A stretch of 20,952 bases of DNA from an uncultured Anaeroplasmataceae bacterium (GCA_948814005.1 CAQJHN010000019.1:1-20952); one strand, 5' to 3'; counted from the first letter of the stretch, positions 18,574-20,952 are shown. The notes: generated by a model not told the origin, from the sequence alone. A program made the numbers and translations.

Positions 18574-20952
18574 ATGTCAGAATTAGGAAGAGAAAGAGAT
18601 TTAGTGCTAAACCCAAATGAATTTGCCTATGTATTAGACAAAACAAAAGGACTCATCTCTTGTGTAGTTGGATCATACAAAATGAGTCTTTCCACATCCG
18701 ACTCACTGGTTATTTTCAATGAGAAAACCAAACAATTCGAAGAAGCTGGATTTGATAAAGCAATTACAACGTTCATCACTGCTCCAGAAAACTGGTATAT
18801 CAAGCTGAAAAACCCTGCTCAGGAGGATAAACATCCAACACCAGGAACCGCAAACCCGCTGCCTGATCTGCAGACTGGAAAAAAAAGTAAATATCAAAGG
18901 GAATGTGTCATTTGCTCTTTACCCAGGACAGATGGCAAAAGTAATCCAGGGACACCGGCTTCATTCTAACCAATACTTGTTAGCAAGAGTATATGATGCA
19001 GATGTACTTGGGCAGATCGAAATCCTTGATGAAAATGGAAAGCCAACAGGTGAAAAGAAAAACCAATATACAATTGGCCAACTTCTTGTAATTAAGGGAA
19101 CCGAGGTCCAGTTCTATATTCCTCCAACTGGAATTGAGGTTATTCCTGTAGGAGGAAAAGGTGATAATTATATCCGAGATGCTGTCACCCTTGAGAGATT
19201 GGAATATTGCATTTTAAAAGATGAACAGGGAAATAAGAAGTACATACATGGAGCTGCGGTTGTCTTTCCGGAGCCAGATGAAACCTTTGTTGAAAATCCG
19301 AATGGTGGGTATAAATTCAAAGCAATTGAATTATCTGATATCAGCGGTGTTTATGTAAAAGTGATTGCTGATTATGAGGAAAATAGCATAAAGCATTATA
19401 CAGGAGAAGAATTGTTTATTACTGGGAAAGATCAGATGATTTATTACCCAAGACCAGAGCATGCAATCATTGACTATAACGGGAAAGTTGTTCATCATGC
19501 CATTGCTATTCCAGTCGGAGAAGGCAGATATGTTCTTGACCGCAAAACTGGAAATATAAAGACGATTAAAGGTGCTGCAATGTATCTTCCAGATCCTAGA
19601 TATGAAGTGATTGTCAATCGGAAACTGTCTCCAAAGCAGTGCGAGTTATGGTATCCTGGGAATAAAGAAGTTTTAAGATATAATGCCGGAATTAATGAAG
19701 AAGATACCTATTTTGACACTTCAAGAATGAAGGGTTTTTCCAACACTCAAGTTTATTCAGATACACTTGATAACGGCTTTTTCGGTCAGGCAAACGCCAT
19801 TGTAGAGGATTCTGGATTTTCTAGGAAGACTACCTATACCAAACCTCGTAGTATCACAATTGATAATAAATTTGATGGAGTAGTAAGTATTGATATCTGG
19901 ACTGGATATGCCATCAATGTCGTATCCAAGAATGGGACTCGTAAAGTAATTACTGGCGCTCAAACTTACCTGCTAGAATACGATGAAACACTGGAAGTTC
20001 TTGAACTGTCTACTGGACGACCAAAGACAACTGATAATCTATTAAAAACCGTATATCTCAGGGTTGATAATAATAAGATCAGCGATCTCATTAACGTACA
20101 AACAAAGGACTTTGTGGATGTTCAGGTCAAGGTTTCTTACTGTGTTGATTTCCTGGAAGATTATAAAGATAAGTGGTTTTCTGTTGAGAATTATGTCAAG
20201 TACATGACAGATCGGCAACGTTCCCTCTTAAAACGTGAAGCCAGGCTTCATACAATTGAAGACTTCTATGAAAATGCATCTGATATTGTCAGAAGAGTAG
20301 CTTTAAACCTTCCGGAACCAGGTGTGACAGAAAAAAACGAATGCGGACGCCCAGGGAGATTCTTTAAGGAAAATGGAATGTTAGTTCATGATGTGGAAGT
20401 TTTAAGTGTTTCGGTTCAGAGTGATGTAGAGGAAATCATCAACGCCCATCAGCGCAGAATTATTACGAAATCTCTTGAACTTTCAAATGCAGCCAAAGAA
20501 GTGGAAGTAATATCTAAACTTACTGCACTTGAAAAAGAAAAGGCTGACCTTGAATATCAAAATAAAATCTATAAACTGGAATTGGATAATAAAGCTGAAA
20601 AGAGTCGGATTGCAAAGCACGAAGAAATTAAGCGACTTGAAGAAAAATCTGATGTCGCAGCTAAACTTGCAGAAAAAGAATTACAGTCATTTTTAGATTC
20701 CATCCAAAAGTCCGAGTTAGCACGAAAAAAAGAGGCAAATAATTCTATCCTTAGTTTCCAAAAAGAAAAAGATGCTCTTGAAATCGCAAAACAAAAGGCA
20801 TATACTGATGCGATCAAAAAAGTCATCGAATCTATAAGCCCGAATTTAATTGCTTCAATGACATCATGCTCCAATGCGGAATTAATGAAGAGTCTTGCCG
20901 AGGCTATGGGACCATATGCACTTGCAACCAATGAATCTGTTTCAGATGTTAT
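18574..20952 (+). CDS. Major vault protein (MVP) homologue, interrupted by a +1 frameshift in an A8 tract (18881-18888), 3'-partial at the window end
   Basis: The frame-0 ORF 18574-18969 has an MVP-like N-terminus (LVLNPNEFAYVLDKTKG..., APENWYIKLKNP, compared with human IRIPPYHYIHVLDQNSN..., PPRHYCTVANP). From 18875 the +1 frame continues without stops to the end of the window. Its MVP matches are:
- FALYPGQ compared with FPLYPGE.
- Multiple roughly 55-aa repeat units.
- Shoulder motif LELSTGRPKTTDNLL compared with LSLSAGRPKRPHARR.
- VHDVEVLSVSV compared with VSSVDVQSVEPV.
- A long heptad-repeat cap-helix.
- KVIESISPNLIASMTSCSNAELMKSLAEAMG compared with [31 protein letters not shown].
Deleting one A from the A8 run gives one continuous ORF (...PDLQTGKKVNIKGNVSFALYPGQ...). 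RBS AGGAGGA lies 4 nt before the ATG. Confidence 0.75.
18881..18888 (+). other. A8 homopolymer at the frameshift position inside the MVP-like gene
   Basis: aaaaaaaa at 18881-18888. The upstream reading frame ends at 18969 and the downstream frame is +1. A7 would restore continuity. Confidence 0.7.

Follow-up and report, generated by a model that had tools for sequence, protein, structure and literature searches.

In Listeria monocytogenes, slippage in a short poly-A run of inlA has produced premature-stop alleles in which seven adenines are reduced to six (A7 to A6). Contingency loci built on simple sequence repeats (SSRs) underlie phase variation in Haemophilus, Neisseria, Campylobacter and Helicobacter, and A-runs are also the site of programmed frameshifting or transcriptional slippage, as in dnaX (A AAA AAG), insertion sequence (IS) elements, Shigella mxiE and the poly-A rescue of endosymbionts. 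Here we describe a run of eight adenines (A8) that splits a gene for a vault-like protein, assigned to the MVP family from its predicted product, in a stretch of 20,952 nucleotides from an uncultured Anaeroplasmataceae bacterium (GCA_948814005.1, CAQJHN010000019.1:1-20952), called the window throughout. We conclude that A8 is real and heritable and is probably a null allele, derived by slippage, of a conditionally dispensable gene apparently carried on a large mobile element of the mouse gut.

The locus resembles the inlA alleles of L. monocytogenes in having a one-base change in a coding run of seven adenines and a heritable truncation that is widespread beside the intact allele. It differs from them in the direction of the change, which is an insertion (A7 to A8), in the gene affected, which is MVP-like, of unassigned function and apparently located on a large mobile element, and in the distribution of A8, which recombination may have carried onto its many haplotypes and which occurs beside a number of other independent nulls. 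As in SSR contingency loci, the homopolymer lies near the 5' end of the coding sequence and has an ON (A7) and an OFF (A8) state, both common; unlike in those loci, the tract is short, comes in two lengths, is neither conserved nor expanded in relatives and has irreversible nulls alongside it. With programmed A-run slippage systems it has in common a slippery sequence (A AAA AAA A) exactly at the frame junction, whereas the shift needed here is +1 with no stimulator, is conserved in no homolog, and has as its counterpart an intact single open reading frame (ORF) that is ancestral and common.

Regarding the protein itself, we know of no prokaryotic or viral MVP for which a function or the assembly of a particle has been demonstrated. 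MVP homologs have been described in silico in bacteria (bioRxiv 10.1101/872010, Sokolskyi 2019) and in gut phages (bioRxiv 10.1101/2023.11.10.566534, Santos et al. 2023), in both cases without a known function. As far as we read them, the two preprints give no account of natural knockout alleles, which to that extent set the present gene apart from the published homologs. The likeness to them lies in the length of about 810 amino acids (aa), the beta repeats, the MVP shoulder and the long helix, and also in the closest relatives, found in metagenome-assembled genomes (MAGs) of gut Firmicutes and in large phage-like contigs. A 2026 preprint on vaults and TIR-NADase does not mention prokaryotic MVPs.

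The split gene and its product

The full MVP-like gene has 813 codons and is split in the window by the A8 run, which stands in the context GG AAAAAAAA GT (Table 1). A preliminary description of this DNA had already reported the split, correctly, but had located the run at 18881-18888, two bases to the right of where it sits. What it had said about the reading frames holds good. Frame 0 ends at 18969, with a TAA; the similarity to MVP continues in the +1 frame, which stays open from just 5' of the tract as far as the window's last base and supplies the part of the repaired protein that matches MVP_shoulder; and removal of one A gives a continuous protein with exactly the junction expected for seven adenines, that is, ...PDLQTGKK followed directly by VNIKGNVSFALYPGQ.... 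The third (-1) frame meets a stop immediately after the tract (GKKK and stop). Repaired to A7, the protein reads ...PDLQTGKKVNIKGNVSFALYPGQ... across the junction and is identical at 789 of 792 positions (99.6%) to an intact public protein of 813 aa (P0001), whose contig (L001) has A7 at the site and is otherwise identical to the window over 461 aligned bases. The junction motif IG[RK]K[VI]NI.GP is shared by 38 homologous loci of other genomes, each of which reads across it in a single frame. Given the near identity of the repaired protein to P0001 and the conservation of this motif in 38 single-frame loci, the frame switch at the A-run is real and does not reflect a chance pattern of ORFs.

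The split gene belongs to the MVP family by two features of its translation, the shoulder domain and a predicted long cap helix. In the repaired protein, Pfam MVP_shoulder (PF11978) is found at residues 499-614 (E = 3.3e-20; 72.7 bits, cut-off 25). MVP chains from the PDB match residues 434-783 (1.6e-13) and, weakly, a second stretch at residues 215-362, and Vault_3 scores 26.0 bits, under its cut-off of 28.8. The AlphaFold (AF2) model, built on a shallow alignment of 27 sequences and of low confidence (pLDDT 54.8, pTM 0.25), is beta-rich over residues 1-500 and continues with an alpha/beta shoulder, after which a continuous 135-residue helix is predicted (residues 616-751, pLDDT 70-88), an arrangement in the order expected of an MVP. 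Family scans with PHROGs and PADLOC gave no family for the protein, and the first 104 residues used as a query retrieved only 15 short proteins, mostly fragments at contig edges.

Tract length in related assemblies

All the population data come from a protein-indexed collection of ENA and Logan assemblies. The exact 131-aa product of ORF1, the upstream piece of the split gene, was found there on 181 contigs (240 index blocks, originating from NCBI, JGI, ENA and Logan; longest contig 245,654 bp). A8 was read directly in some 17 distinct loci, from the window and about ten unrelated accession series (SRR25661678/57, ERR13455703, ERZ28663654, ERZ27255160, SRR13251470, SRR30966417, SRR328820xx, SRR82913xx, ERZ941135 and SRR29764172), among which there are contigs with SPAdes-style and MEGAHIT-style names as well as Logan assemblies. 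The carriers of A8 differ among themselves at single-nucleotide polymorphisms (SNPs) within the gene. The window and another A8 contig (L002) are separated by 10 SNPs in 7.7 kb and are therefore independent sequences.

These observations bear directly on the possibility, raised in the preliminary description, that the extra adenine is a homopolymer error of sequencing or assembly in the window. Homopolymer indels are the commonest error of long reads, and one near-identical contig is indeed intact. However, an error would hardly recur as the same A8 in hundreds of independent assemblies from many projects, with different types of contig name and with gene SNPs that vary from carrier to carrier. 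The window itself has no homopolymer indel that is private relative to its relatives, its two other variable tracts (T6 at 17466-17471 and A8 at 17868-17875) are in the states that form the majority elsewhere, and no other gene in it is split. An error in the window can be considered refuted for practical purposes.

The intact A7 allele is roughly as common as A8. Members of the same 90% cluster that are intact at 813 aa are P0124 (86 blocks), P0125 (82 blocks) and several rarer variants. P0121 (143 blocks) and P0126 represent the part of the split gene downstream of the break. Rough index counts amount to about 190 intact, 240 A8 and 47 other null alleles, and non-redundant related loci have A7 in 31 cases and A8 in 15, figures that count index blocks and loci picked by protein identity and are not unbiased estimates of frequency. 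The names of the samples point to the mouse gut (PRJEB7759 'mouse gut metagenome', XIAO15, LESK20 and an MGBC MAG). Comparison of the tract among related sequences, which had been proposed as a check, gave A7 and A8 as the only lengths, both of them common; the exact products of A5, A6, A9, A10 and A11 are absent from a collection of 15 billion proteins. A scan with an exact pattern in which the tract length was left free gave no match in IMG/VR and JGI metagenome contigs.

The single-ORF A7 form is the ancestral one and is still common. Relatives of 40-90% identity are all single ORFs across the junction, and the lineage that is 90% identical has the same A7. In more distant relatives the same Lys-Lys position is encoded by GGTAAAAAAGTC, GGAAAAAAGG, GGACGTAAA, GGTAAGAAG and others, with A4-A7 or interrupted codons, and all of these are also single ORFs. 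One relative of 62% identity (L084, positions 2207-2222 of ERZ27303693 k141_1157743) has GGTAAAAGGTAA (IGKR and stop) in place of the GGTAAAAAGGTA of its relatives, having lost one base from the homologous Lys-Lys A-run. The sequence comes from a single contig of 2.4 kb, and the loss may be an error. Much farther away, two MAGs (L046 and L045; Cytophagales, Microscillaceae) have an MVP homolog that is interrupted by stops or frame breaks at about the same place in its N-terminal part; the contig naming of L046 suggests a long-read assembly, and the breaks in both may be errors.

Haplotypes, recombination and selection

A8 is found on 10 haplotypes of the gene and each of the other nulls on one. 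Three gene haplotypes are found with A7 as well as with A8, without a difference at any of the 24 SNP sites; L104 (A8), for one, is the same as L060 and L065 (A7) at every site. Two loci from adjacent run accessions, L003 (A8) and L048 (A7), are separated over some 20 kb by the tract and a single SNP. The tract and a pair of adjacent SNPs are all that sets L005 and L006 (A8) apart from their A7 siblings, a pattern resembling a recombination patch. In a sample selected on tract state and on residue 271, and biased in this respect, all four gametes are present for ordinary SNPs that lie 99 bp from each other, and the count of incompatible sites is 11 of 13 for SNP 811 and for the tract alike. 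The gene is a recombination mosaic. A single origin of A8 had appeared plausible from L005 and L006 and from the nine A8 loci sampled first, all with C at gene position 504, and was overturned by A8 alleles with 504T and 405A. As to the history of A8, it may have arisen by recurrent slippage or may be one old allele spread by recombination, and these data fit both equally well.

The gene has 15 synonymous and 6 missense polymorphic sites (pN/pS ~0.11), a ratio that shows that the protein was functional and constrained in the past. Such constraint together with many nulls would fit conditional dispensability, fluctuating selection or a recent relaxation of selection, for example in laboratory mice.

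Other disabling mutations and the surrounding genes

Besides A8 there are at least four independent nulls in the gene: stop codons at Q54 and Q164, an out-of-frame deletion of 1188 nt and a one-nucleotide deletion in a second A7 run (Table 1). The Q54 stop is found alone in L100 and combined with the one-base deletion of the second tract in L067-L069. Shortening of the second run to A6 leads to VTEKTNADAQ... and a stop, leaving a separate C-terminal ORF of 212 aa (P0122). Two alleles are doubly mutated, one with A8 and the E581 stop, the other with the Q54 stop and the frameshift in the second tract.

The surrounding genes present another picture, since none of the 19 neighbours is disrupted in any of the loci, 15-40 per gene, in which it is covered. 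The sole variation among them is a natural difference in C-terminal length (536 or 554 aa) in one gene, located at 9628-11292 of the window on the minus strand and encoding a secreted-looking protein of 554 aa; the 536-aa variant, with a stop at codon 537, is found in 9 of 21 related loci. Throughout a 22-kb alignment, length varies in only one of 63 coding homopolymers of at least 6 nt, namely the MVP tract, compared with 2-3 of 16 non-coding ones. From this contrast we infer that the MVP tract behaves as an unconstrained run and that frameshifts are purged outside this gene.

Variation of other kinds is found nearby. The runs at 17466-17471 (T6/T7) and 17868-17875 (A7/A8) are length-variable among related contigs and lie at the boundaries of small ORFs, and the genes flanking the variable T6 and A8 runs are called at differing lengths (102, 143 or 92 aa; 365 or 352 aa). 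A 67-nt indel segregates in the intergenic region 3' of the MVP-like gene (~12443-12801 in L048 versus 12443-12734 in L047), and L050 has a 93-nt insertion 5' of the gene.

Table 1. Features of the split MVP-like gene and positions of its disabling mutations, in window coordinates; L numbers are our labels for individual loci.
Feature	Position	Strand	Remarks
Shine-Dalgarno (SD) sequence AGGAGG	18564..18569	+	4 nt 5' of the ATG of the MVP-like gene; read from the sequence
ORF1 of the split gene	18574..18969	+	131 aa, 104 native MVP-like and 27 out-of-frame residues; ATG at 18574, stop TAA at 18967-18969
Q54 codon, CAA to TAA	18733..18735	+	null allele in L067-L069 and L100
A8 homopolymer	18879..18886	+	GGA AAA AAA A/GT; one base more than the intact A7; codons Gly102-Lys103-Lys104
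Rest of the MVP-like gene, next frame, codon 105 onward	18887..20952	+	runs off the end of the window; beta-rich repeats, shoulder domain, predicted long cap-like helix
Internal GTG	18905	+	start assigned by gene callers to a 703-aa downstream ORF; no SD comparable to AGGAGG
Internal ATG	18932..18934	+	start assigned by gene callers to a 694-aa downstream ORF; no strong ribosome-binding site (RBS)
1188-nt out-of-frame deletion between CAGATCG microrepeats	19020..20207	+	null allele in L066, L070, L071 and L073-L075
Q164 codon, CAA to TAA	19064..19066	+	null allele in L076-L083
E581 codon, GAA to TAA	20315..20317	+	second mutation on the A8 allele of L002
Second A7 run, shortened to A6 (frameshift)	20331..20337	+	L067-L069 and L072, on alleles already carrying the Q54 stop

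Interpretation and alternative explanations

The existence of an intact ancestral allele, the inheritance of A8 together with differing linked SNPs and the presence of further disabling mutations taken together argue for loss of function. The passage from A7 to A8, within codons 102-104, is a one-base insertion of the kind made by replication slippage, and translation of the A8 allele would end after 104 native and 27 junk residues. A8 would thus amount to a loss of function without rescue by programmed recoding, in a gene that may be conditionally dispensable or at times counter-selected, so that its nulls persist. That A8 is the commonest of them could reflect either that the A7 run is the most mutable target or that an old allele has been spread by frequent homologous recombination. 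Slippage between A7 and A8 being reversible, the site could also act as a slow ON/OFF switch. The preliminary description had counted among its explanations a genuine inactivating mutation that turns the gene into a pseudogene, and this stands for a common segregating null and falls for a fixed pseudogene, since the intact A7 is equally common.

Several points weigh against a segregating null allele. The presence of A8 on 10 haplotypes would mean that it is of old date, has arisen repeatedly or does less harm than a true null would. Purifying selection of the strength indicated by pN/pS is awkward to reconcile with a null in more than half of the assemblies, and the allele counts, based as they are on index blocks and on loci picked by protein identity, do not provide an unbiased frequency. 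Finally, the A8 allele may be leaky, through slippage of the RNA polymerase or the ribosome on the run or through restart at the internal ATG or GTG.

Phase-variable (contingency) expression would account for some of this. Under this explanation, frequent and reversible slipped-strand mispairing switches the gene ON and OFF at A7/A8 and fluctuating selection maintains the polymorphism. It would agree with the abundance of both tract states, with the three haplotypes and the pair from adjacent run accessions (L003 and L048) that are found in both with the same or nearly the same SNPs, and with the 10 haplotypes of A8 compared with one for each point or deletion null. The position of the tract early in the gene (codon 103 of 813), the length polymorphism of two nearby unconstrained non-coding runs of 7-8 nt and the one-nucleotide deletion in the homologous Lys-Lys run of the 62%-identical relative point in the same direction. 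On the other hand, only two lengths exist, with none of the shorter or longer products among 15 billion proteins; a tract of seven is short for switching at a high rate, and in relatives it is neither conserved nor lengthened. The second A7 run of the same gene varies once only, as a second mutation. The four gametes at SNPs 99 bp apart, and the fact that SNP 811 is as incompatible as the tract, imply that recombination alone can spread one old allele, and the irreversible nulls in the same gene indicate that loss needs no switch. The suggestion of slipped-strand expression made in the preliminary description was therefore right in that A7 is in frame and A8 out of frame, while the two lengths and a distribution equally well explained by recombination leave such a contingency mechanism, at a low rate, as a serious though less likely rival. 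A particular form of it, a balanced ON/OFF polymorphism with a reversible A7/A8 switch and possibly some leaky expression by slippage, in which the vault-like protein would be beneficial or costly depending on host or condition, for instance as a target of host defence, appears to us speculative and clearly unlikely.

The remaining explanation is that the protein is made in spite of A8, by transcriptional slippage, by +1 slippage of the ribosome on tRNA-Lys (AAA AAA A) or by restart giving a truncated protein of 694-703 aa, so that the allele would be a hypomorph or a regulated form. A-runs of eight or more are known to cause some slippage of the RNA polymerase (Thermus dnaX, Shigella mxiE, poly-A rescue in endosymbionts), nearly all A8 alleles have an undamaged downstream frame, and A8 is very common in spite of a pN/pS of ~0.11. 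Recombination with A7 alleles accounts just as well for the undamaged frame, however, and the E581 stop arose on an A8 allele. Neither the tract nor the frameshift is conserved in any relative, and the internal starts have no strong RBS. A search for recoding stimulators near A8 found no upstream SD-like element, the A-site codon, AGU, is neither a stop nor slow or rare, and RNA folding around the tract gave no significant structure (z = 0.18, -0.37 and -1.67). Both the product of an insertion to A9 and the -1 frame stop at once. Programmed +1 frameshifting, the last of the explanations in the preliminary description, is not supported, given the lack of conservation in relatives, the lack of significant RNA structure and the clear nulls and second mutations in the gene; some low-level unprogrammed slippage on A8 may take place. 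Altogether, we consider expression from the A8 allele improbable, and a segregating null allele remains the reading that we prefer.

The carrier element and the significance of the null alleles

The genes around the MVP-like gene encode a RecD2-like helicase, a topoisomerase, a sigma-70 factor, a CHC2 primase-like protein and a PNK/phosphatase, together with a CCA-adding/HD enzyme, a signal peptidase, a ParA-like ATPase and an SLT lysozyme. The scaffolds that carry the gene reach 245-525 kb (245,654 bp in L005 and 525,091 bp in L050) and code mostly for hypothetical proteins. The best explanation is that the gene is located on a large mobile element of mouse-gut Firmicutes. A megablast of the gene region gave no match in the PLSDB plasmids and INPHARED phages, and the GTDB representative genomes contain no copy of this species' gene, the best match there (74% identity) being in a mouse Lachnospiraceae MAG. 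Near-full-length tblastn matches of the MVP-like protein, with about 40% identity (39-40%), are present in uncultured phage genomes of 462-735 kb. They fall in 'uncultured phage' records without annotation, LR756501.1 (17320-19599), LR756503.1 and LR756500.1 (21054-23387), of sizes that include 735 kb and 462 kb, and from these matches it follows that huge phage genomes contain vault-like genes.

The frameshift itself is ordinary, a slippage indel in a short A-run, and its value comes from the context. At the level of public databases, it means that a single gene, in two pieces, accounts for the 131-aa and the 694-aa 'hypothetical protein'. A balanced ON/OFF polymorphism, if true, would be the first case of a vault protein from prokaryotes or viruses that is regulated in the manner of a contingency locus, and would offer a natural knockout series for finding the function of the vault-like protein. 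In any case, hundreds of public mouse-gut metagenomes provide near-isogenic elements, some with the gene intact (A7) and others in which it is knocked out by A8, by either of two nonsense alleles or by a deletion. Grouping samples, hosts or transcriptomes according to the allele present could reveal the conditions that call for the vault-like protein.

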